From the IMG/VR virus record IMGVR_UViG_3300028908_000007, positions 1-64,000 of that record: 64,000 nucleotides of DNA. One strand, 5' to 3'. The DNA is from a virus. Shown here piece by piece: positions 1 through 52,362 of this stretch; positions within the stretch are counted from its first letter, which is position 1; every line of letters begins with the position of its first letter. Made by a program: the position numbers and the translations under genes. The notes under the pieces were generated by a model, which had not been told where the DNA came from, searched no databases, and worked only from the letters and a program-made list of their open reading frames with translations.

Positions 1-1302
1 CCTCTTCCATACCCACACAATTGGACTACAAATCCAGTTAGGATTACCATTACTGCAAAGAATGAATCATTATTGTATTATGGAGTAACTGAGTTCATTC
101 TGGGAGAGTATCAGAAACCAATAAGTAATACTACAGATACAGTTAGTTCTTTATATACAGTACACACTGTAGTAAATAAAACAATAAAGAAACTAGATAT
201 AGATACCCTATCATTAGAACCTGTACAACTTCTAAACAATACAAGTGTTTTCAATAATGATTTTGAAGAAATATATGTAAAAGATGATAAGCTTATTGCC
301 GTTGGGTTCGTATCAGCCACCTATACTGATACCAATGGAAATACAGTAACAGCAACCAATGATAATATAGCTGTATTTGATATAGGTCTTAAATCATTAG
401 TAAAGACCAGTACGATTACAGGTACCGTAGTACAAGATGAAGTAACCAAAGAACTCTATACTATAGATCATTATACAGGCACTTTTTCTAGTCTGGATAT
501 TGATACCTTAACAGAATCAACGATTGTTGCTCTACCACAACCTACATATAGTGTATTGCTTCGTGATAAAGTAGCATATGTGTTATCAAAAGCACATACT
601 GTTGGCGGTGAGGAGCAACTATCTTTATATAAGATCGATATTCCAACAGGGACGTTTTCTGAGATATCGACAATAAAGAATTATAATCCAACTACATCTT
701 CTATGAATCCTTCTTTTAGTCCTGGAGATATAGCATACCAGAAAACAGATGATAAAGATTTATTAGTTATTAGAATTTTTAATACGACTCCGTTGAGTAG
801 CGATACTACCATACCCCAGGTAAATGGTATCAATCTTACAACAGATGTAGGTACTATAGATTCCGGTGTATTGAATTATGTGGTGGTAGATGTAGATGGT
901 GCGCCTTGGGTGGCTTTCCACTCTATGGCATGGGCAGTTCATCCAACCTTCTTACAAGAGCCAGGTATTGCTTCTATCCCAAGAAAAACATTAATGGTAG
1001 ACGATGAATATGTTTCTTATTTTTCATATAGGAAATCTCCAGACAATTACAGACTTTCCTACACACCAGTAACTTCCACTCTTAGAGGTGTAATTCAAAA
1101 TCCAGTATCAAAAGACCCAGTATATTGGACTAAGATTTCCGATATAGTACAGATATCGCCAGGCAAGTATTTGGTTATTGGTAAAGGACAACACAAACAC
1201 GGTGGGACACTTTCTACAACTAGTGCTGTAATGGCTATCTACACACCATCTGGTGAGATTATTTCGTATAAGATTGCATCAGGAGAGCTTGGTCGGGCGT
1301 GA
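1..1302 (+). CDS. Virion/tail-associated protein with probable beta-propeller, 5'-truncated by the window edge
   Basis: Frame is open from base 1 (PLPYPHNWTTNPVRITITAKNESLLYYG...). Thr/Val/Ser/Tyr-rich beta-strand repeats. Last codons overlap the predicted omegaRNA. Confidence 0.5.
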   Translation, partial: PLPYPHNWTTNPVRITITAKNESLLYYGVTEFILGEYQKPISNTTDTVSSLYTVHTVVNKTIKKLDIDTLSLEPVQLLNNTSVFNNDFEEIYVKDDKLIAVGFVSATYTDTNGNTVTATNDNIAVFDIGLKSLVKTSTITGTVVQDEVTKELYTIDHYTGTFSSLDIDTLTESTIVALPQPTYSVLLRDKVAYVLSKAHTVGGEEQLSLYKIDIPTGTFSEISTIKNYNPTTSSMNPSFSPGDIAYQKTDDKDLLVIRIFNTTPLSSDTTIPQVNGINLTTDVGTIDSGVLNYVVVDVDGAPWVAFHSMAWAVHPTFLQEPGIASIPRKTLMVDDEYVSYFSYRKSPDNYRLSYTPVTSTLRGVIQNPVSKDPVYWTKISDIVQISPGKYLVIGKGQHKHGGTLSTTSAVMAIYTPSGEIISYKIASGELGRA

Positions 1303-1465
1303 TCGTAAAGTAGACTAAGTCCTTTTAGTCCGCTCCATGTGATCACTATCAGGAAGTAGTCCTGTACGTACCGACCAGCGCTCCCACGATAGTGGGAAAA
1401 CAGTGAAGTAAGTTTGGTCAGCTAGTGAGACCGCCCAAGACCTATCTGTTCAAGATAGCGTATTG
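1288..1465 (+). ncRNA. Putative omegaRNA (HEARO-like scaffold) of the IscB system
   Basis: GC-enriched non-coding stretch directly upstream of iscB with nested stems: cttggtcgg/ccgcccaag, gactaag/tttagtc, tcacta/tagtga, cagga/tcctg, gacca/tggtc, tcccac/gtggga followed by aaacagtg, ctatc/gatag. Ends are approximate. Confidence 0.65.
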
Positions 1466-1493
1466 TAATGTGTTTTTATCTAGGAGGTTATTT

Positions 1494-3164
1494 TTGCCTA
1501 ACTATGTGCCAGTGTTATCTGACGATGATAGAATAATTGGCTATGGCCATCCATCTGTCATCCGAAAGATGTTTAGAGCAAAAGTAGCATTTGTATGCTC
1601 TCGTCACCCATTTATGGTGAAGATGAAGAAAGGCATCAAATGTAAACATGCTCTTAAGAAGTATGTAGAATATGGTATAGATCCTGGTGTACACCACACT
1701 GGAGTATCTGTAATATCTTACGATACGATACAAACTACTGAAGGTCGTATCTCTTTGCGAGATATATTAGCCATGTATGTATTGGAGCATAAGAAACTTA
1801 TTACTAGGAAATTAGAAGAAAGGGCCATGTATCGTCATCATCGACGACGTAGACAACAACGTAAAGGTACTAGATGGTCCAGACTAGGTAAAGAATTTCA
1901 CGTATTACCAGGAATAGATGAAGTTAGAGAAGACGGTACTAGGAAGTACCGTAAAGAGAAAGTAATCCTAGGATACAAAGAACGTAAACTACGTAACCTG
2001 GAATTACTAACAGAGTGGCGTAATTCTGGAAAGATTTCAGAAGAAGAGTATCGATCTAGAGCAAGACAGATCGATAAAGCTTTAAAAGAGCTAGATAGGA
2101 AATATTACAAGCCTAAGAGCTGGTTATCACCAGCTACTAGGAGTAGATTAGAAAACATAGGATATTTCATACATAAGATTTCTTATGGTTTAAATACTAA
2201 TAGACCTATGGTTATCTATTACGAAGATGTAAGATTTACACCTGAATTGGCAGAAGATATATTTAGAGATACCAATAGTATACTTAAACCCATACAAAAA
2301 GACTATATACGCTGGAGAGATAACTATCAGTGCCAGCTATGTGGCTATGATTTTATTAAGAATAATTTCAAAAGACAACCGCAAATAGACCATATCTATC
2401 CTAGGTCTAAAGGTGGTCCTAACGATAGGACTAATTTACAACTTTTATGCTCTAGCTGTAATCAGAAAAAAGATAATTATCTACCACATGAACTCTACTC
2501 TATATTCCCTAAGAAATACCATAAAGCTATAGACAAAATGCAAAATAAAACAAACCATACTAAGCAATATCAAACAAAATCCACTCAAACCAGGAAACTA
2601 TTTGCAAGATATCTGGAACTAGCCATTACAAAATCCAGACTAAGTCCTACTAGGCAAATAGATCTTAAATATCCTACCATTATGTTTAAGGATAAGATAA
2701 TTCATAATTCAGAATTAGTCTATGTCGATAGAGTACCTGGGTATTTTACATACTACTGTAGAAATTATAATAACTTACCAAAAGAACACTGTATAGATGC
2801 TGCCTGTGTATCTAGTAAACCAATACGAGTAAATATAAGATCATATCAGTATACTGAAATTAAAGTAAAGGGACATAGAGATAAATTATACATACGGCCA
2901 GATAAATATGGTTTTCCTAAGAAAACTAGACCTAAACCACGTACTAAGCGTATAAACGGATATCAATCTGGAGATCTAATAAAATATATTACCAAGAATA
3001 ATAATATCTGCAAGGCATATGTCTCTACATCAGCACAAGATGGTCGTATAGCGCTTAATAAAAATGGAAAACAAGTTTTTATGACTACCAAACGAATGCT
3101 ATCCATACTGCATAAAGCAGATGGATATCTCTGTAACCCTGTTAATTTTGGAGACCACTTATGA
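1494..3164 (+). CDS. iscB: IscB RNA-guided endonuclease (RRXRR/RuvC + HNH) with insertions
   Basis: PLMP-like N-terminus (VPVLS..IIGYGHP..IRKM..PF), RuvC-I GIDPG, Arg-rich bridge helix (LEERAMYRHHRRRR), WLSP, RuvC-II YEDVRF, HNH (CQLCG..IDHIYPRSKGG..NL..LCSSCN), RuvC-III EHCIDA, C-terminal GYQSGDLIK. Likely start is TTG 1494 after GGAGG. Confidence 0.93.
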   Translation: MPNYVPVLSDDDRIIGYGHPSVIRKMFRAKVAFVCSRHPFMVKMKKGIKCKHALKKYVEYGIDPGVHHTGVSVISYDTIQTTEGRISLRDILAMYVLEHKKLITRKLEERAMYRHHRRRRQQRKGTRWSRLGKEFHVLPGIDEVREDGTRKYRKEKVILGYKERKLRNLELLTEWRNSGKISEEEYRSRARQIDKALKELDRKYYKPKSWLSPATRSRLENIGYFIHKISYGLNTNRPMVIYYEDVRFTPELAEDIFRDTNSILKPIQKDYIRWRDNYQCQLCGYDFIKNNFKRQPQIDHIYPRSKGGPNDRTNLQLLCSSCNQKKDNYLPHELYSIFPKKYHKAIDKMQNKTNHTKQYQTKSTQTRKLFARYLELAITKSRLSPTRQIDLKYPTIMFKDKIIHNSELVYVDRVPGYFTYYCRNYNNLPKEHCIDAACVSSKPIRVNIRSYQYTEIKVKGHRDKLYIRPDKYGFPKKTRPKPRTKRINGYQSGDLIKYITKNNNICKAYVSTSAQDGRIALNKNGKQVFMTTKRMLSILHKADGYLCNPVNFGDHL

Positions 3165-3298
3165 TACGATCACACTGGCTAGTCACTAGTCCACGTTCGT
3201 CCTATAACGATGCTATGCATCACGTCCTCACTACGACCACCTCTGCTCCGCGATGCTACACATCCGGGGTCTGGAGGTCGTAATATATCCGTATATTA
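3165..3298. other. Structured GC-rich element downstream of iscB (IS end or second ncRNA)
   Basis: Hairpins ctag/ctag, cgtt/aacg, gatgc/gcatc, long tacgacc...ggtcgta, aatata/tatatt. Starts with TACGATCAC, the reverse complement of 1299-1307. Confidence 0.45.
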
Positions 3299-3303
3299 CT
3301 CCT

Positions 3304-3714
3304 ATGTCTGTCGTAATATTACCAACACTTAGTGATAAACATTGGGTAGTAGACCCCGTATCAAAAGCTGATATGTTATTTGCACATTTTATGGCAGGTA
3401 GTAATACACAAACCTATATGTATACATCGGAAGTATCTTCACTACCCTACCTATTACAGAAGTATGGTCATAATCCAAACGAATTTGCTACTAATGTAAA
3501 AACCAGATTACAAATCTACTATCAAAGGTACTATGACAATGTAGATATACAGGTCTATGCCAAAGAGGAAGTAGAAGGAACAAACAGATATAGCATACAT
3601 TTGGATATGATTGTTAGTGATGACGGTGGAAAAGAGATACAATTAGGAAGGATTTTGACAATTAATGATGGTAAAATGCAGAAGGTGGTAAAGTTAAATG
3701 CAACTGGATCCTGA
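3304..3714 (+). CDS. Conserved phiKZ-like virion/baseplate-type small protein
   Basis: ILPTLS..WV...KADMLFAHF..SLPYLLQKY pattern recalled from phiKZ-like phages. ATG 3304 preferred over 3253. Confidence 0.55.
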   Translation: MSVVILPTLSDKHWVVDPVSKADMLFAHFMAGSNTQTYMYTSEVSSLPYLLQKYGHNPNEFATNVKTRLQIYYQRYYDNVDIQVYAKEEVEGTNRYSIHLDMIVSDDGGKEIQLGRILTINDGKMQKVVKLNATGS

Positions 3715-4210
3715 CGAATTACTAGAGTTAGAAAAAGTAGAAGACCTAGCGTATAGCGGTTTGGTAGAAGACCAACCAAAAGGGAAGTTATCTGAGAAAA
3801 TATTTGTACAGTATTTTCTTCCTTATTTCTCAGGAAAGACCCCAATTACAGAGGAAGTTATCAATCAGTGGGTATCAGTAGCAGGAGGAATGACGAGAGA
3901 GGTAGATATTGTTGACGGAAAAGGAGAGTTTCTGTTTACGGTACCTGCATTATACGATACTGGTACAGTTACTGTTAGAGATGATAAAATATCGATATTT
4001 GATGTAGTAAGTACAGCAAACTTACATAATGAACGAGTTCCAGGTAGCGGAGATCCATATATTGCCAAGGCATCTGAAGAAACGGAGAAACTGGTAAACA
4101 AATCCAAGATTACACAGTTTTGGGAAGAGATGTCAAAACGCTATAATATTATAGAAAAGGAGAAAACTTCTGTAGAATCTGTAGAAGAGGACGATTTGTT
4201 TGACTACTAA
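3698..4210 (+). CDS. Conserved phiKZ-like hypothetical protein
   Basis: E.IF...FLPYF.G..W..VAGG...V...G..LF.VP pattern; acidic C-terminus; coupled to sbcD. Confidence 0.6.
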   Translation: MQLDPDELLELEKVEDLAYSGLVEDQPKGKLSEKIFVQYFLPYFSGKTPITEEVINQWVSVAGGMTREVDIVDGKGEFLFTVPALYDTGTVTVRDDKISIFDVVSTANLHNERVPGSGDPYIAKASEETEKLVNKSKITQFWEEMSKRYNIIEKEKTSVESVEEDDLFDY

Positions 4211-5390
4211 ATTTGACTATCTTGTCTATTCGGATATACACTTTGGTCATCGGAAGACCAGAATAGACAATACAATTCGGTCTATTGAGAACATATGGAA
4301 AGAACCTTGGTTTAGAGATCTAAAAGCAATATTTATTGCAGGCGACATATATGATAGAAAACTAGATCATGGTTCGTATGATGCTACTGAAGCCACACTA
4401 CACCTAATTAGATTAGGATATGTTTGTTTTAAGTATAATATAGAGCTTTACATATTAGAAGGAACACCATCGCATGATTGGAAACAAGCACAATCCGTTC
4501 CTGAGCTATATAGACATATGAAGATACCAATTACCTGCCACTATATTGATAAGGTAACAATAAAATACAGCAAAGCGTTAGAGAAGTATATTCTTTTTAT
4601 ACCTGATGAAATAGATACTCCGACCAATGTGTTTGATATGGTAAAGGAAGCAGTCCATAGTAAGGAACTGGATAAAGTTGATATTACGATTATGCATGGG
4701 GCTTTCAGATATCAACAATCCGGAGCTCCAGAAGAATATTGTCATTTAGAGATGGATTATCTAGCCATTACAAGATACTTGATACATCCTGGACATATCC
4801 ATCAACACACACATTATAAAAGGATTGTAGCACAAGGTAGCATTGATAGATATACACATGGAGATGAAGATCCAAAAGGATATGTTGTTGTAAGAAATAA
4901 TACCGATTGGATGTTTTATACCAATCCCACAGCTACCAAGTATGTTACAATCCCAATTCAGATAAAGACACTCGATGAAGCACGATCCGTGCTTTCAAAG
5001 CAAATTCAAACTCTTGACCTTCCAAAGAATAGTCACATTCGACTACAAATCCCAAAAAATAGTCCGATACCTTCTCTGATTTCAGAGATTAGAACACAGT
5101 TCCCATATTACCACATTACGTTTATTCGTGAAAAGGTGGTAGAGGAAGAGAAACCCAAAAGGTTATTGGAGGCTAAAGAATATGATTCTATCCAACTCAC
5201 TCCAGACAACATTATAGATATTGTTATGAAAAAACTGAACAGTTTAGACGTTTTTAGTACCGACCCAGTACCTACCATAGGGGTAGGTGATAAAAACGCC
5301 TCAGAGAGCCTCTCAGAGGCTCCTAGAGGGTATTCTGATGTACGTTCTGAGTATAAGAAACTACTATCCGAGATAATTTCAGATGTTTAA
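4200..5390 (+). CDS. sbcD: SbcD/Mre11-like metallophosphoesterase nuclease subunit
   Basis: SDIHFG, AGDIYD, EGTPSHD, MHG and GHIH phosphoesterase motifs. Confidence 0.9.
   Translation: MTTKFDYLVYSDIHFGHRKTRIDNTIRSIENIWKEPWFRDLKAIFIAGDIYDRKLDHGSYDATEATLHLIRLGYVCFKYNIELYILEGTPSHDWKQAQSVPELYRHMKIPITCHYIDKVTIKYSKALEKYILFIPDEIDTPTNVFDMVKEAVHSKELDKVDITIMHGAFRYQQSGAPEEYCHLEMDYLAITRYLIHPGHIHQHTHYKRIVAQGSIDRYTHGDEDPKGYVVVRNNTDWMFYTNPTATKYVTIPIQIKTLDEARSVLSKQIQTLDLPKNSHIRLQIPKNSPIPSLISEIRTQFPYYHITFIREKVVEEEKPKRLLEAKEYDSIQLTPDNIIDIVMKKLNSLDVFSTDPVPTIGVGDKNASESLSEAPRGYSDVRSEYKKLLSEIISDV
5243..5335. repeat. Phased quasi-palindromic element, copy A (inside sbcD)
   Basis: AGACGTTTTTA...TAAAAACGCCT dyad plus arm CTCAGAGAGCCTCTCAGAGGCTCCTAGAGG. 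Reverse complement aligns with 31696-31790. Confidence 0.75.
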
Positions 5391-7880: not shown

Positions 7881-9320
7881 ATGAACGACGCTGTAATCGA
7901 ATCCGTTTCCCTAATGGAGATTCCACACAGCAGGAAGTACTATCTACGACCCTATGATGTTTCGGTATCTGTAGAGAACCTGAACGATTTGGAAGCATCT
8001 ATCGTGGATAGTAGAAATCGAGGAAACATGGCAATAAATCCAGCAGACATACCGGCTGGATTGATAATGCCTACAGCCACACCTACTAAAGACGTACCCA
8101 TACCTGGTACTTGGGAGGCTACAAGATATACCTTCATCATAAAGGTAATGGAGGATAATGCTGCCATACAATCAAGAATAGAACATTATATTACAGGATA
8201 TACAGAAGAAACCGAGCTGTCATATGCTGGTAGTGTAGATCCGAATATGATTATGTATATCAATAATGTAATGCAGATTGTTGGTAGAAAACGCTTGTAT
8301 GATATAAATACGATTCTACATACACATGCGGAGACAAATATAGGTGCATCCGACGAGAATATTACCTATCTGAGAATATACGATACCATACCTAGCGAGC
8401 TGATAGAACAAGGTGATTATACAGGAGGTCTAACAATACAAGCAAACAGAATGTCTGTATTGGATAGGGGCGGGAGAGCGATTAGTGCAGAAGAAACAGT
8501 AGGAACAAACTTTATATCCAGCGCTGTTAATATATGGTTACAACAAGTCTTGGCAACTATGACAGCGGAGCATATCGAAACAAATACATACGATCCGGAT
8601 AGTATAATCGATGTAGGTCAATATAGAAAAGCACCAACCGATATGCTTAGCTCAATACAAGTATTAAAGCCGTCCGGTGCCTATAATTATATCAGTAATA
8701 GTATAACATATGCTCAACTAGTGTCCAAGGATCCATCAGTACCTCAGAAGACGATTATTTCTGACTATCTAGAACAACCTGAATCCAATTTTATAATGCC
8801 GGAAAACTGTGAATCATGGAAGGCGTCCACACAAGAAGCTGTAATAGCTACCATTATATCAGAACAGATGCCGTCGATTATGCTGTCGTCTGGTCTTATT
8901 ACAGCTGGAGTCATTTTTACCAATATGACCACAGATGGAGAGCCATTCCATTTGAATATCACATTCCCAGTTACGTTTGGATCTTTGGATGCATCTATAT
9001 TCTCTACTATCTTTAGAAATAGACTAATAAAAGAAGTCATTCCTTCAATTACACAGAACAATACGATTCCAGTATCGTTTACTGCAACACTTAGTTTGGT
9101 AGCTCCTTCTACCGCAATAATTCAAATCAACGGACCAGTTGGTCCAGAAAGCACTCCGTTTAATCTCCCAACATTCAACACAGGTATGCATTCTTCAGTA
9201 CTTCTTCCCTCAATGTCCTACCACCACCGGTTACGACAAGAGCTCGGCACGCTGCGTGAGGTAGTACAAGATACAGCAACATCCGCTTTCCAGCAACAGC
9301 CCGAGGTTTTCTATGGCTAA
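7881..9320 (+). CDS. picA: Putative phage-nucleus protein import factor PicA/Imp1 (phiKZ gp69-like)
   Basis: Follows the gp68-like gene; YLRPY, IPGTW...RYTF, YITGYT and YINNV motifs; ~480 aa. Assignment is mostly by synteny. Confidence 0.6.
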   Translation: MNDAVIESVSLMEIPHSRKYYLRPYDVSVSVENLNDLEASIVDSRNRGNMAINPADIPAGLIMPTATPTKDVPIPGTWEATRYTFIIKVMEDNAAIQSRIEHYITGYTEETELSYAGSVDPNMIMYINNVMQIVGRKRLYDINTILHTHAETNIGASDENITYLRIYDTIPSELIEQGDYTGGLTIQANRMSVLDRGGRAISAEETVGTNFISSAVNIWLQQVLATMTAEHIETNTYDPDSIIDVGQYRKAPTDMLSSIQVLKPSGAYNYISNSITYAQLVSKDPSVPQKTIISDYLEQPESNFIMPENCESWKASTQEAVIATIISEQMPSIMLSSGLITAGVIFTNMTTDGEPFHLNITFPVTFGSLDASIFSTIFRNRLIKEVIPSITQNNTIPVSFTATLSLVAPSTAIIQINGPVGPESTPFNLPTFNTGMHSSVLLPSMSYHHRLRQELGTLREVVQDTATSAFQQQPEVFYG

Positions 9321-10866
9321 TATTAACAACTTGTTGTCTTTCTATAGAAGCTTTCTAGAGAGCATCGGAATCTATATAAATAAAGACGGATATTTGACAG
9401 ACTCGGATGAGAAAATTATAACGGGAATAACGGATATTCCATTCAAGCTTCCTACAGAAGAAGCTTTGAAACATGTAATGGTCCGAGATGAGTCTCGGGC
9501 CAAATCTTCCTCAGAGCCATATGTACAGCAATATGAGATATATAATCCTCTTAATGAAATGGCTATTCTTGGAGGAACACATACTCCAGATATCCTACTA
9601 ACAGCAAAATACCTTTCTGATAAATATTCCACCTTGTTACATCACGCAGTAGGCGAAGTTATAAATGGACTTGGAAAAGAAGATGTCGCTGAGAATAATG
9701 AAGCTGTGGAATTACTTCTTGAAGTATCTTCAAGAGTAAGAGGTGGAAAGGATGTAATAGACAAATCATCATACAAGAATGTTAATAAGATATTCAACTC
9801 GATGTTTACCGATGATAATGGGCAATATCCCTTGTCCTTTATGGTTTCCAAAGGCGGTACCATCGATGGAGAAAAGTATAATCGAATTATTAGTGTATCT
9901 GTAAATATCTATAGACATATACACGAAAATGACTATAAGGCACTACGGGTACGGTCAAAAGACGTTATATTATTGGATGCAATACTCCAACATATATTTT
10001 CCAATATGTCCGAAAGTGGTATTATACTTGTTGGTAGTAAATCCAAAACATCTCCGTCTTTTGATGGTTTGGTAGAAGCAGCAGATATTATCGGTAATAT
10101 GATTGCCAGTGCAAGTTCGTTTATCGATGATGCAGATGTTCTAAAAGAAATCATCGCTGAAGATAGAGTAGTAGAGCGATATAAAACATCGAAAGATACT
10201 CTTATCAGAGAAGCTAAAATGATTGCTCCAATACGACATAGGCAGAAAGAGAAGAATTTAACACAGAAGAGGGAAAGTGATATGCCTTCAGTGCCAGACA
10301 CACCACCAACTCCCACTACTCCTACCAGGGAGAATAAGAAGGACCCAAGAAGTTTCTTTGGGAAACCAAAGGAAGATCCAGTAATACAGAGAGAAACTCC
10401 GAAAGAACCAGCCAAAGAAACGACGATGAATACACCATCTACGCCACAGCAACAAACACAACAGCAATATCATCAACAGACACAACCAATACAGCAGCAG
10501 TACCCTCAAACACCATACCCACAGCAAACTATGCCATACCAACCCCAACAAACACAACAACCCTATAATCCTACTCCATACCCACAACAAGCACCACTAT
10601 ATCAAACACAGCCAATGCAACAACAGTATCCTCAGACACCGTATCCACAACAGACCACACCGTATCAAACGCAACCAATGCAGCAGCCATACCAACAGAC
10701 GCCATACCCACAACAGGTACCGCTATATCAGACACAGCCAGTACAACAACCCTATACTCCTACTCCATATCCACAGCAAACTATGCCGTATCAAACACAA
10801 CCAGTGCAGCAACCATATGGAGAACCTCCTCTGAAGAGAAACGCATCACCATTTGGTCGGTATTGA
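9313..10866 (+). CDS. phiKZ gp70-like core protein with Q/P/Y/T-rich repetitive C-terminal tail
   Basis: FY.SFL..IG, LPT, YNPLNE and KGGTIDGEKYNR motifs; low-complexity C-terminal ~150 aa. Confidence 0.6.
   Translation: MANINNLLSFYRSFLESIGIYINKDGYLTDSDEKIITGITDIPFKLPTEEALKHVMVRDESRAKSSSEPYVQQYEIYNPLNEMAILGGTHTPDILLTAKYLSDKYSTLLHHAVGEVINGLGKEDVAENNEAVELLLEVSSRVRGGKDVIDKSSYKNVNKIFNSMFTDDNGQYPLSFMVSKGGTIDGEKYNRIISVSVNIYRHIHENDYKALRVRSKDVILLDAILQHIFSNMSESGIILVGSKSKTSPSFDGLVEAADIIGNMIASASSFIDDADVLKEIIAEDRVVERYKTSKDTLIREAKMIAPIRHRQKEKNLTQKRESDMPSVPDTPPTPTTPTRENKKDPRSFFGKPKEDPVIQRETPKEPAKETTMNTPSTPQQQTQQQYHQQTQPIQQQYPQTPYPQQTMPYQPQQTQQPYNPTPYPQQAPLYQTQPMQQQYPQTPYPQQTTPYQTQPMQQPYQQTPYPQQVPLYQTQPVQQPYTPTPYPQQTMPYQTQPVQQPYGEPPLKRNASPFGRY
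10480..10820 (+). repeat. Coding tandem repeat, ~21 aa (63 bp) unit QTQPxQQxYxxTPYPQQxxxY, ~5 copies
   Basis: Visible directly in the translation. Confidence 0.85.
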
Positions 10867-26481: not shown

Positions 26482-29400
26482 ATGACTGAATCAGTCGAAA
26501 CAATTCAACTTGTAGAACCTATTCCTTATTGGAATAGGCAATCTTTGCGTCTCTCGAAGTATGAGGCGAGTGAAGCCGCGAGAGCGGCGATTATTACAGA
26601 GAATACTACACTTGAAGAAATAAAAGAGCTTTCCGATAAGATACGAGAGACATATTATAATATAGAGCTTTATCCCTATCAAGATGAAAAACTAAACTAT
26701 CGTGAAGATGGTTCTCTGGATCTGGAAAATCCGACTATTACAGTGGATGATGTTCTAAAAACAACTGTTCCTAAGGAAGGCGTTGATCCTGATTATATAT
26801 ACGTAGCTCTATATAATACCGAGAAGAAAACAATCTGGCTTATGACTCTAGAAGAGTTTTTACGTGTTTCTGGAGAAGCGCCAGAAGTCATAAAGAAAGC
26901 AGTAGAAGTATCAGATGTGGAAGATATCACAAAACAACTTCTTAATAGCATTGGTCTTAAATATGACCGTAGTACATATGAAGGATATGTAGAAAATTAT
27001 GTAGAAGGTGAAACAAATTTCATGTCAAATGGTGTGGAGGTCTTGCGAGAGCTCAAGAAGGAAATGAAAAAGGCTCAGAGCCCTGAGAAGGATTCTACCG
27101 AACTGCTTTCGGATGAGGACTCCACAAAAGAAGACTTTGATATTGTTCCCATAGAATACATATCCAGTGTAGGTGTTGTAGAGTATAAAGACTATGTAGA
27201 AGGTGTAGAGCATTATAATTTTATTACACAAGTCATTAGACGATTCGAGTATGAGTTCGAAGCTAAAGAAGGTGAGAATAATATATACACACTTCCGGAG
27301 CCTTGGTGTGGGACGGATGTTTTATATTATCGTAACAATGATGAAAGGGATTTTATCGATAATAAACTTCAAAGTAAACCAAAATACGGATATGGTTTAA
27401 AACATACTGCAAATTTCAAAGCAAAGATAGCTACAATCTACGACCAAGAGTACAGAAGAAAGAAATATGACGAATATGTAGAATCTGGACGTGGTATTGA
27501 TGATACAGACATTGCTACTGTTATTGAAGTCGACGAAGATGATATTATCTCTAGTAGCGATATTTATCAAGAGAAGAACTTTGGTACCGCAGAGTTTGTA
27601 AAGCTCAATACGACAGAAGGATATGAAATCATCCTTTACTTGGATGAATTCCAAGAACTCCTGAACACTACACTTGTATTAATGCCTAGCGGTTTTTCAG
27701 AAGAAGAGTATCTGTCATTTCTGGCAGAGCAGATCAACATCTCTGTAATTGAAGGTCGTTTGGCAGTTGTATACTATACTGGTGTAGATAAGGAACTCCT
27801 TATCGAAGTGCTGGATGGAATGGAAGTATATTACAATAAGTATCCTATCGATGATACGAAGAAGCGTTTGAGAGTTCTTAGCTCGAACCACATTCCGTAT
27901 GCGGTTGCGCATGTAGACGCTCTTTATACAGAAACACCAAAGGTAACTTGTAAAGATTTCATCAAGAACGGTTATCGTTGGGTAAAAGTCATTACAAAAG
28001 ACAATAATTCTTTATTATTGAATATTACAGAATTGAATAGCATCGAGAATAATGAATATTTACAGAAGCTTTTACAGCGTGATGAAATCGATTACGAGAC
28101 TGCTAGAAGAATAGAAAAACGTATTATGTATAATTTCGAACCTATCCGTGGAAGAATTCCCATGGAGATCAAGGAAGAGATGGTTATCGAACCAAAAGAA
28201 CCAGAACCTTCTGTAATGAAAAAACCGGTATTGGAAGTAACAAGACCAGAAATTCCAATTACAGAAGAAACGGAGTATAACGAAGATGATATCGATATTA
28301 CGGTTACCAGCACACTGAACGATCCTATACCAGAACCAAAGATTCAGCGACCTGACAGGAAACTGACGGTAGAGCTCATCTACGAGAATATGATCGAGAA
28401 TGTTCGCGATCAGTTAAAGCGTGGTGAGCCTGCGCCTGGTGCTGATAGAATCGTTCGGGATAGTATCGAACCGAATATCGTAATCCGTAATCTGGATGGA
28501 ACACTAACTACTGTCGATTATTGCGGCGATTATGAAACAGTTTATGTATTAGACTATAAAGGTATGGTACATAGACTGTCTGTAGAAGAAGCCATTCTTT
28601 GGTTTAATACAATTAAGATTATCAATAATAAGTACGAGTCTATTAAGGTAATACCCAGGAAGATCTATGAGATCGATCCAAAAGAAGTAGAGGATCTCAG
28701 GGAACTCAACTCCAGAATACATGTCGTAGATAGAGCGAAAGCAATGCTTCGCCAGTTCATTGATAGACAAATTAACCCAGCATTCAGAAACACTGAAGCA
28801 AATTTCGAAGCTGGGAAAGATATGTACAGGCCTACAGCGCCATATACCAATATCACTTCCTCTAATCTACATACCGATATGTACCAAGAATATGTTAGAA
28901 GTCAGGAAGCACAAGGTAATAATGTAAGGAACAAGAAGAACTTTTATGAGAAAATGGCAAGAGCAAAAGAGGAGGCAAGTAGAGAAGAACCCAAAACTCA
29001 GACTGAAGCACCAACAAACCAGCCAAGCAAGAGCTCTGTAAAGAAGAAGATCGATAATCTTCTTAGCAAAGTACCTGAGGAAATCCGAGACGTTATGTTG
29101 GAGATTGCTCAGAGAGCTGCTCAGAATAACGGTATTCTTCCGAAGAGCTCTAGACATGTTACAAGTTCGCCACACTGGCCAATTTGTAACACAATCATTC
29201 AACTTTTGATGGGAGAAAACGGAACAACACAAACACAACGTCCACAACAGCAATATACCCAACAACAACCTACACAACAATCCACACAACAACAGACATT
29301 TACTACCCAACAGAGACCGCAGTATACACAGCCTAATACTATGGCAAATCGTTTATATACTACACAACAGGGACATCCATCCACGCTTTATGGACAGACA

Positions 29401-29895
29401 CCTACACAACAGCCTATGATGCATACACAGCAACCACAGCAACAATATACCCAACAACAGTATCCACATCAACAATACCAACAACAACATCCCCAACAGC
29501 AGTATGGACACCAGCAATATCCACAGCAACAATACGGACATCCGGGGTACGTACAGCAACCGTATCAACCGCCAAGAGTACATAACGGTATGAGAGGTCA
29601 GCAAGTGCCACACCATCAGTACTACCAGCAACCTACTCAGCCGTACCATCAAACACAACAGCCTATGATGTATACACAGCAACCACAGCAACAATATACC
29701 CAACAACAGTATCCACATCAACAATACCAACAACAACATCCTCAAACACAACCTATGATGCATACACAGCAGACACAATATCAAGAACACTACCCGCATA
29801 CTGCATCGCAGATGCCACAAACACCGCAAGTCGCAGTACAAATGGTTCAGTCAGCTAGACCTGCGACGGGGTATAACGGCGGCCCTTTAGACTAA
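26482..29895 (+). CDS. Large acidic hypothetical protein with Q-rich prion-like C-terminus
   Basis: ~1137 aa from ATG 26482 (GGAGAAACAACATG); C-terminal ~220 aa is Q/P/Y/T/H-rich. Confidence 0.65.
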   Translation: MTESVETIQLVEPIPYWNRQSLRLSKYEASEAARAAIITENTTLEEIKELSDKIRETYYNIELYPYQDEKLNYREDGSLDLENPTITVDDVLKTTVPKEGVDPDYIYVALYNTEKKTIWLMTLEEFLRVSGEAPEVIKKAVEVSDVEDITKQLLNSIGLKYDRSTYEGYVENYVEGETNFMSNGVEVLRELKKEMKKAQSPEKDSTELLSDEDSTKEDFDIVPIEYISSVGVVEYKDYVEGVEHYNFITQVIRRFEYEFEAKEGENNIYTLPEPWCGTDVLYYRNNDERDFIDNKLQSKPKYGYGLKHTANFKAKIATIYDQEYRRKKYDEYVESGRGIDDTDIATVIEVDEDDIISSSDIYQEKNFGTAEFVKLNTTEGYEIILYLDEFQELLNTTLVLMPSGFSEEEYLSFLAEQINISVIEGRLAVVYYTGVDKELLIEVLDGMEVYYNKYPIDDTKKRLRVLSSNHIPYAVAHVDALYTETPKVTCKDFIKNGYRWVKVITKDNNSLLLNITELNSIENNEYLQKLLQRDEIDYETARRIEKRIMYNFEPIRGRIPMEIKEEMVIEPKEPEPSVMKKPVLEVTRPEIPITEETEYNEDDIDITVTSTLNDPIPEPKIQRPDRKLTVELIYENMIENVRDQLKRGEPAPGADRIVRDSIEPNIVIRNLDGTLTTVDYCGDYETVYVLDYKGMVHRLSVEEAILWFNTIKIINNKYESIKVIPRKIYEIDPKEVEDLRELNSRIHVVDRAKAMLRQFIDRQINPAFRNTEANFEAGKDMYRPTAPYTNITSSNLHTDMYQEYVRSQEAQGNNVRNKKNFYEKMARAKEEASREEPKTQTEAPTNQPSKSSVKKKIDNLLSKVPEEIRDVMLEIAQRAAQNNGILPKSSRHVTSSPHWPICNTIIQLLMGENGTTQTQRPQQQYTQQQPTQQSTQQQTFTTQQRPQYTQPNTMANRLYTTQQGHPSTLYGQTPTQQPMMHTQQPQQQYTQQQYPHQQYQQQHPQQQYGHQQYPQQQYGHPGYVQQPYQPPRVHNGMRGQQVPHHQYYQQPTQPYHQTQQPMMYTQQPQQQYTQQQYPHQQYQQQHPQTQPMMHTQQTQYQEHYPHTASQMPQTPQVAVQMVQSARPATGYNGGPLD
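29406..29741 (+). repeat. Near-exact ~86-bp direct duplication in the Q-rich tail (about 29406-29492 and 29655-29741)
   Basis: Both copies encode QQPMM(H/Y)TQQPQQQYTQQQYPHQQYQQQHP. Confidence 0.85.
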
Positions 29896-52199: not shown

Positions 52200-52276
52200 G
52201 GGCCTTTAGCTCAGTTGGTTAGAGCAGTCGACTCATAATCGATTGGTCGCAGGTTCGAGCCCTGCAAGGCCCACCA
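52200..52276 (+). tRNA. tRNA-Ile2 (CAU, lysidine type; Met less likely)
   Basis: Full cloverleaf GGGCCTT/AAGGCCC, anticodon CAT, encoded CCA; body resembles enterobacterial ileX (AGAGCAG.CGACTCATAATCG.TTGGTCGC). Confidence 0.85.
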
Positions 52277-52277
52277 T

Positions 52278-52362
52278 CGGGGTGTGGCGAAATTGGCAGA
52301 CGCAAGGAACTTAAGATTCCTCGGTTTTTACCGTGTCGGTTCGAGTCCGACCACCCCGACCA
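52278..52362 (+). tRNA. tRNA-Leu (UAA)
   Basis: CGGGGTG/CACCCCG acceptor stem, AGGAA-CTTAAGA-TTCCT anticodon arm, long variable arm, encoded CCA. Confidence 0.9.

Follow-up and report, generated by a model that had tools for sequence, protein, structure and literature searches.

An IscB-encoding element with a divergent upstream RNA in the genome of a phiKZ-like jumbo phage

The stretch of DNA analysed here (the window) is the first 64 kb of the 75,388-bp IMG/VR virus record IMGVR_UViG_3300028908_000007. Near its start, at 1288-3303 on the plus strand, the window carries a discrete element that it shares with the metagenome contig L003. The element consists of a structured, omegaRNA-like region, a gene for the RNA-guided endonuclease IscB and a hairpin-bearing 3' end. 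It lies directly before the start codon of a conserved phage gene and was followed up after an initial annotation, made by a model from the sequence alone, had flagged it as an IscB locus with its own omegaRNA and no transposase.

The iscB gene and its product

The iscB open reading frame (ORF; 1494-3164, plus strand) encodes 556 aa and starts with a TTG codon, 6 nt after an AGGAGG ribosome-binding site (RBS) at 1482-1487. The start codon of the L003 iscB aligns with this TTG and has the same RBS spacing. The product matched the Pfam families RRXRR (PF14239, E 3.4e-16) and HNH (PF01844, E 1.2e-13), and it aligned end to end with proteins that NCBI names 'RNA-guided endonuclease IscB'. The RuvC residues D63 (GIDPG), E244 (YEDV) and H432/D435 (HCIDA) were invariant in the alignments, as were the HNH residues D299-H300 and N323 and the zinc cysteines C280/C283/C319/C322 (CxxC...CxxC). 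From the N-terminus onwards, the protein is made up of a PLMP-like region, RuvC-I, an arginine-rich bridge helix, an insertion, RuvC-II, HNH, RuvC-III and a domain that interacts with the target-adjacent motif (TAM). The PLMP motif is diverged, and the conserved columns of the C-terminal TAM-interacting domain are G489, G493-D494, G517 and G544.

Confidence in the AF2 model was moderate (pLDDT 70). The best Foldseek matches of the model were IscB structures (9nvu, 9liq, 8csz and 9k30) and the IsrB structure 8dmb, followed by Cas9s, with E-values of 4e-14 to 2e-12 for the IscB-omegaRNA-DNA complexes. Judged from its sequence and predicted fold, the ORF encodes a full-length IscB with intact active-site residues. 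The initial annotation had called an intact IscB from its RuvC and HNH motifs and had named HMM and structure searches as the means of checking it. The two Pfam matches, the invariant residues, the end-to-end alignment and the IscB-omegaRNA complexes heading the PDB matches all bear this call out. The GC content of the ORF (34%) is phage-like. A C-terminal similarity to TALE repeats (E 4e-18) was rejected, being the sum of about 20 weak per-repeat matches with i-E-values of 23-1800; the segment in question is the conserved TAM-interacting domain of IscB.

The insertion was recognised from the gap pattern in the alignments and comprises about 80 aa (residues ~127-205, encoded by 1872-2108 on the plus strand). 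It follows the bridge helix, which is the position of the REC lobe in Cas9, and is confined to the window IscB and its 57%-identical relative on L003. It appears to be partly a helical hairpin, with helices modelled by AF2 at residues 161-178 and 183-204 and low confidence at 125-160. The DNA that encodes it is about 87% identical to L003.

Structured regions on both sides of iscB

Between the left end of the element and the iscB start lie 206 nt (1288-1493, plus strand) that form a putative omegaRNA-like scaffold, as indicated by their fold and by their conservation in L003 and in a third relative, L004, whose IscB has 34% protein identity. The GC content of this region is 45.6%, compared with 37.4% for the window, and its minimum free energy (MFE) z-score is -2.7. 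In the predicted structure, a long-range helix P1 (GGUCGG/CCGACC, 1291-1296/1371-1376) encloses a 19-bp and a 5-bp hairpin (P1a, 1299-1346, and P1b, 1350-1364). Three further hairpins follow on the same strand: P2 (1383-1396), P3 (1416-1432), which has a conserved 9-nt loop AGCWAGUKA, and P4 (1442-1458).

The region is about 90% identical to L003. Pair retention was tested by taking the MFE structure from the window sequence alone and mapping the L003 substitutions onto it. Six of the eight changed pairs were kept and the two broken pairs were both at helix ends, against a null expectation of 7.9 broken pairs (P about 0.003-0.005). One pair in P3 showed a compensatory change, from U-A to C-G. 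L004 has almost no primary similarity to the other two copies, yet it has an identical helix order built from different stem sequences and retains the P3 loop motif. The best L004 match of a covariance model (R1) based on the window and L003 was weak (E about 0.065) but lay exactly at the expected position. The structured RNA that the initial annotation had placed upstream of iscB is thus supported both by its z-score and by a structure kept in two relatives.

Its identity as the omegaRNA belonging to this IscB is a separate matter. Infernal with the Rfam HEARO model (RF02033; gathering threshold 83 bits) had been named as a check of this claim and gave no match at E<=10 in the window, L003 or L004. 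Among control loci, 17 of 22 canonical IscB loci scored above the gathering threshold (86-144 bits) and three more were sub-threshold; HEARO there occupies the same position relative to iscB. A set of 17 such loci gave HEARO scores in 15, of which 12 exceeded the threshold. A conserved structured RNA in the omegaRNA position is thus supported, and membership of the HEARO family is not. The window RNA and HEARO share position and strand relative to iscB and are similar in length. They also share a layout in which a long-range first helix enclosing two hairpins is followed by AG, a small hairpin and further hairpins before the RBS. By contrast, the GGUCG start, the GACC-(N)CGCU junction and the AGCWAGUKA loop of the window RNA are unlike HEARO, and no pseudoknot could be demonstrated. 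Position, size, architecture and covariation, rather than family membership, point indirectly to a divergent omegaRNA.

A match to RAGATH-12 at 1354-1410 (19 bits, E 0.89; threshold 75 bits) was treated as noise. This weak similarity is centred on the P2 hairpin CCCAC-GAUA-GUGGG and probably arose by chance. Counts of sigma-70 promoters and terminators were at chance level.

On the other side of iscB, the 3' end of the element (3165-3303, plus strand) contains several hairpins, has a GC content of 50.4% and an MFE z-score of -3.6, and is 85-90% identical to L003 up to the ATG. Its terminal hairpin (3279-3298) ends 5 nt before the last base of the element, 3303. All 35 pairs of this module were kept in the RNAalifold consensus of the window and L003, three of them with double changes. 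We rejected this as evidence of covariation, as the RNAalifold result is circular and the unbiased test on a single-sequence structure was not significant (P 0.19-0.55). A conserved hairpin-bearing 3' end of about 110 nt is also found in canonical cyanobacterial IscB elements. The 3165-3303 region is probably a transposon end that carries a subterminal hairpin for a Y1 transposase. It might have a further function as well, for instance in the translation of the gene that follows.

With structure on both sides of the gene, it has to be asked which side provides the guide RNA. The 3165-3303 module could be the RNA partner of IscB or a second RNA, and the 5' fold a cis-regulatory leader or a DNA-level transposon end. 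The failure of the 5' RNA against HEARO would fit this, as would the 3' module being the most GC-rich (50%) and most stably folded, with wobble pairs in its RNAalifold consensus that form only on the iscB-sense strand. We nevertheless hold this arrangement to be decidedly improbable. All characterised IscB omegaRNAs lie 5' of the ORF, and HEARO was 5' in 15 control loci as well. Pair retention is significant in the 5' RNA, which is kept in L004, whereas 3' covariation is not significant, and canonical IscB elements have a conserved 3' end too.

Several smaller features of the element were noted. Its last 51 nt (window 3253-3303, L003 2893-2943) form an open frame with an ATG start, in frame with the downstream gene. 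The ATG at 3253 would extend that gene by 17 codons, and the frame is open in both copies, but it was rejected as not coding-constrained: because all six of the nucleotide differences are non-synonymous, the extension is probably not selected. An exact 10-nt direct repeat, GTCGTAATAT, occurs at 3277-3286 in the terminal hairpin and at 3310-3319, 6 nt into the right flank, and is not clearly kept in L003. The heptamer GGTCGTA recurs at 1743, 3042 and 3276, and GATCGTA is found at 1301. A 9-bp inverted repeat (1299/3166) and a 12-bp complementarity (1508/3168) were both dismissed as probable chance, neither being kept in L003.

Borders, target site and guide

Comparison with L003 defined the borders of the element. 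The same element is flanked there by a phrog_1479 gene and a dUTPase gene, and in the window by an unmatched ORF and a phrog_3294 gene, so that the flanking genes of the two copies are unrelated. The noncoding DNA on both sides of iscB is about 90% identical between the copies; the proteins are only 57% identical. From 1288 the two copies are similar up to the ATG at 3304-3306, where the similarity breaks off. In L004 the left-end motif GGTCG(R)G recurs, here within yet another phage context. Different contexts with conserved ends, as expected of a discrete element, were thus found for the window and L003, and the left-end motif for L004. The initial annotation had given the extent as 1288-3298. 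Its left coordinate is the exact start of similarity to the L003 copy, and its right end has to be moved to 3303.

The motif directly after the element, ATGTC (3304-3308, plus strand), resembles a target site or TAM, and its ATG is the start codon of the gene at 3304-3714. The corresponding right flank in L003 is ATGAC, at the start of the dUTPase gene; these are the two right ends available. In both copies the ATG after the element is the start codon of the downstream gene, and in the window the PHROG profile match to phrog_3294 begins at residue 4 counted from ATG 3304. ISC elements insert at N|ATGA (or GT|GG, GT|RA) without target-site duplication, and among elements with the same ends, iscB and tnpB are on opposite strands (PMC4810608). 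For GstIscB the TAM is TTCAT (Meers et al., bioRxiv 10.1101/2023.03.14.532601), corresponding to ATGAA when read on the iscB strand. In canonical cyanobacterial IscB loci, too, the 3' end stops just before ATGAAA-like flanks. Read from its sequence, the window copy appears to be an ordinary ISC insertion whose ATGA-like target (N|ATGT) is at the same time a start codon. This agrees with the target rule of the family, and the preference of ISC elements for N|ATGA would explain why the element landed where a gene begins.

The phrog_3294 gene is of unknown function and is conserved in phiKZ-like phages, and the upstream ORF had no match in PHROG profiles or among deposited phage proteins. The initial description of the flanking genes as two virion-type genes was thus not confirmed.

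The left flank ends in AGGAGAG, with AGGAG at 1281-1285. This AGGAG(AG) is probably the Shine-Dalgarno sequence that served the downstream gene, whose ATG is now 2 kb away. Within its first 30 nt the element has stop codons in each of the three reading frames. An insertion between a Shine-Dalgarno-like motif and an ATG, with stops in every frame at its left end and structured RNA on both sides of an ORF, is also what a self-splicing intron (group I/II or IStron-like) with an HNH homing endonuclease could look like, splicing of which would rejoin the Shine-Dalgarno sequence and the ATG. This explanation is barely credible here. Within 1100-3500, no Rfam group I or group II model matched at E<=10, and group II domains I-III would not fit into the short 5' part. 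Splicing at a group I 3' site after the terminal G would remove the start codon of the downstream gene, and an IscB is not a typical intron endonuclease. The flanking ORFs, moreover, differ in both gene and frame between the two copies, and they are separate genes in relatives.

Neither Y1 TnpA (PF01797) nor serine recombinase (PF00239) had a match in the entire 75,388-bp record, which amounts to about 29% of the genome, in line with the absence of a transposase noted initially. No second HNH was found in the record either. In the majority of IscB elements TnpA is missing (Meers et al., bioRxiv 10.1101/2023.03.14.532601). The R1 covariance model detected no further copy, either in the window or around 68 other loci, and exact-pattern scans of IMG/VR for both element ends returned no match.

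We read 1288-3303, with a probability of roughly 0.65, as a non-autonomous OMEGA element of the ISC type (IS200/IS605 superfamily) with a flank-derived guide and a presumed homing mechanism. Protein architecture, catalytic residues and fold are those of known ISC/IscB OMEGA elements (PMC4810608; GstIscB/ISGst5; OgeuIscB 7utn, 7xht, 8csz). The likeness extends to the size of about 2 kb, the single gene and the lack of a transposase, to a structured RNA of about 200 nt that lies directly upstream of the ORF and reaches the element end, and to the co-oriented upstream gene and the conserved hairpin-bearing 3' end. Insertion before an ATGA-type motif without evident target duplication is a further apparent point of agreement. 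Unlike those elements, the window element has an RNA undetected by HEARO, a diverged PLMP, the insertion of about 80 aa after the bridge helix and the flank ATGT in place of ATGA, and its clade is found only on phage-like contigs, here of Chimalliviridae type.

Several findings weigh against this reading. Because the HEARO model fails on the 5' RNA, its identity as an omegaRNA is indirect, and only three loci stand behind the 5' RNA and two behind the 3' end. The window flank departs from ATGA. Hairpins lie near both ends of the element but form no obviously similar subterminal pair, and the element is present as a single copy, with no second copy of either end in the record. Reconstruction of the empty site is also awkward. 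With the junction at 1287|1288, both neighbouring ORFs are fused in frame; counting a CT dinucleotide shared at both junctions, which makes the junction ambiguous by 2 nt, the reconstructed site has a stop 14 nt into the downstream gene. No insert-free allele of the window or the L003 copy was found in IMG/VR or among deposited phages, and the borders are therefore uncertain by up to about 4 nt.

Comparison with empty alleles in related phages had been proposed at the outset. It yielded no insert-free relative in the collections searched, so that homing and interference stay at the level of inference. Neither host phage had a close relative, either by its flanking proteins in IMG/VR or among deposited phages at the DNA and protein level; the best IMG/VR match of the L003 dUTPase was 49% identical.

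The predicted guide segment is the 16 nt of flank that adjoins the element end (1272-1287 on the plus strand, give or take about 4 nt). Its position and 16-nt length follow the IscB literature (PMC12660989; Meers et al., bioRxiv 10.1101/2023.03.14.532601). The initial annotation had expected the guide at about 1265-1287, which covers the 16 nt adjoining the L003-defined end. The gene before the element has the same orientation and runs into it, which fits what is expected of IscB elements; the upstream ORF of L004 does likewise. The segment had no other match with three or fewer mismatches in the window.

That the element uses such a guide, cleaves DNA and homes, and that it enters the phage nucleus at all, is inferred. 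In the mechanism we propose, which follows published IscB biology, transcription would read through from the co-oriented upstream gene, and the first ~16 nt of the omegaRNA would be the left flank (about 1272-1287). The IscB-omegaRNA complex would recognise 'left flank + ATG...', a sequence present only in insert-free genomes. These genomes would be the ones targeted, because the left flank is joined to the ATG, and the target intact, only where the insert is missing. The complex would cut them, and repair from an insert-bearing genome would copy the element in, resulting in homing or retention. Co-infecting relatives could also be put at a disadvantage. To move to a new site, the element would depend on a Y1 TnpA provided in trans.

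Host phage and clade distribution

The genes of the window indicate what kind of phage carries the element. They include split multisubunit RNA polymerase beta subunits, a phiKZ-type major head protein, a DnaB-like helicase and a homologue of phiKZ gp128. ORF 7881-9320 is a homologue of PHIKZ069 (gp69, PicA), with 30% identity over the N-terminal 144 aa (E 5e-10). PHIKZ069 is the nuclear import factor PicA, a core gene of the Chimalliviridae (PMC11087766). Because of the split RNA polymerase beta subunits, the phiKZ-type head protein and the gp128 and PicA homologues, the host genome is, by its gene content, that of a phiKZ-like jumbo phage, and this phage is very probably nucleus-forming. CheckV put the 75,388-bp record at 29% complete, which agrees with the jumbo-phage context suggested initially. 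The match of ORF 7881-9320 to PHIKZ069 likewise confirms the PicA-like gene that had been placed about 5 kb from the locus. This picA-like ORF lies within a block downstream of the phrog_3294 gene that is syntenic with Erwinia phage Ea35-70 and Burkholderia phage FLC9.

Free-standing and intron-borne phage homing endonucleases (T4 Seg/Mob; PhiPA3 gp210 on PhiKZ; PMC11087766, PMC13565253) likewise have their nuclease genes between conserved phage genes and are expected to cut genomes without them and to be copied in during co-infection. PhiPA3 gp210, acting on PhiKZ, also provides a precedent for nuclease import into the phage nucleus (PMC11087766). The element differs from these systems in that its target would be read by a predicted flank-derived RNA guide and not by the protein.

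The phage could also be keeping IscB as a domesticated weapon against competing phages or host DNA, with a guide fixed at a conserved gene junction and IscB imported into the nucleus. The element does lie at the start of a conserved core-gene block near picA, the composition of its ORF is ameliorated to the phage, and its clade, absent from 185,579 prokaryote genomes, was seen on large phage-like contigs only. There is also a known case of an imported nuclease acting between nucleus-forming phages, that of gp210 (PMC11087766). We consider such domestication unlikely, however. The same element occupies unrelated sites in L003 and L004, which speaks for movement and against a fixed location. Within the window the guide finds no further target, nothing points to import of IscB, and nothing sets such a weapon apart from selfish homing.

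The clade is rare: in a HMMER scan of 1.84 billion representative proteins at E<=1e-30, only seven related clusters came up, and their contigs range from 2.7 to 197 kb. All contigs on which the clade was seen are phage-like, and profile scans found no members in the 185,579 prokaryote genomes or in the rest of IMG/VR. At identities of 29-58%, the catalytic residues have been retained in all nine proteins of the clade, a sign of purifying selection. Two different clade IscBs, P0004 (486 aa) and P0020 (552 aa), each come from a 196,646-bp contig, and one jumbo-phage genome may therefore carry two copies.

Selection of this kind bears on whether the element is an inert relic, inserted once and no longer active as a nuclease or a mobile element. 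A single copy without a transposase, a flank (ATGT) that departs from ATGA, and the failure to see either an empty site or sibling polymorphism are all compatible with a relic. It is nonetheless quite unlikely to be one, given an intact 556-aa ORF with every catalytic and zinc-binding residue present, catalytic residues kept in nine clade members at 29-58% identity, and an RNA structure kept through compensatory and wobble changes.

Canonical HEARO-IscB loci are already present in deposited phages. We found them in LR756508.1, an uncultured 484-kb phage (L239, 1829-3403; HEARO 144 bits), and in Microcoleus phage My-WqHQDG, OR578707.1 (L240, 1898-3409; HEARO 129 bits). Both IscB loci are unannotated or labelled 'hypothetical protein', and HEARO lies directly upstream. 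Like the window locus, they combine an IscB with a guide-RNA gene upstream of it and lie in phage genomes; they differ in that their RNA is a standard HEARO (129-144 bits) and their proteins are 23-26% identical to the window IscB. Because HEARO-IscB already occurs in deposited phage genomes, a phage-borne OMEGA locus is less exceptional than the initial annotation implied. IscB elements on start codons are, as a class, published biology. No published description of IscB in jumbo or nucleus-forming phages was found in the literature searched. The locus is, on sequence grounds, a known kind of element, and the new part is its divergent, phage-restricted form, with a non-HEARO RNA, a REC-position insertion and a diverged PLMP.

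A more far-reaching reading is that of a phage-restricted IscB lineage with a remodelled ribonucleoprotein (RNP), which would act as an RNA-programmed homing or competition nuclease inside the Chimalliviridae nucleus. The remodelling would comprise the non-HEARO scaffold and the diverged PLMP and, in this branch, the REC-position helical insertion. We offer this reading tentatively and regard it as doubtful. Were it true, the insertion would be a small parallel to the route from IscB to Cas9, and PicA-type import of the RNA-guided enzyme or its RNP would be required.

If active, the locus would be a case of an RNA-guided DNA nuclease encoded by a nucleus-forming phage. Nucleus-forming phages are known for excluding DNA-targeting enzymes from their replication compartment. 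The locus therefore opens three questions to experiment: whether the nuclease or its RNP is imported, whether RNA-guided homing runs between co-infecting jumbo phages, and how the downstream gene is translated with its RBS split from its ATG. The lineage may also hold some interest for enzyme discovery, since its IscB is compact, its scaffold falls outside the HEARO family and its TAM is probably of the ATG type.

The adjacent array typical of Type II CRISPR-Cas or CRISPR-associated IscB was not seen: no CRISPR array lies near the locus or elsewhere in the 75-kb record, and the only tandem repeats are coding ones at 10.5 kb and 29 kb. A gene for an SbcD-like nuclease subunit (phrog_100, E 8.5e-35) lies at 4200-5390, 0.9 kb downstream of the element; a DNA-end-processing enzyme of this type could matter for break repair after homing. 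Further away, the window contains two adjoining tRNA genes (52200-52359; 74 and 53 bits). The coding tandem repeats (10480-10818, with periods of 63/126 nt, and 29223-29751, with periods of 15-42 nt) encode low-complexity protein tails rich in Q, P, Y and T.

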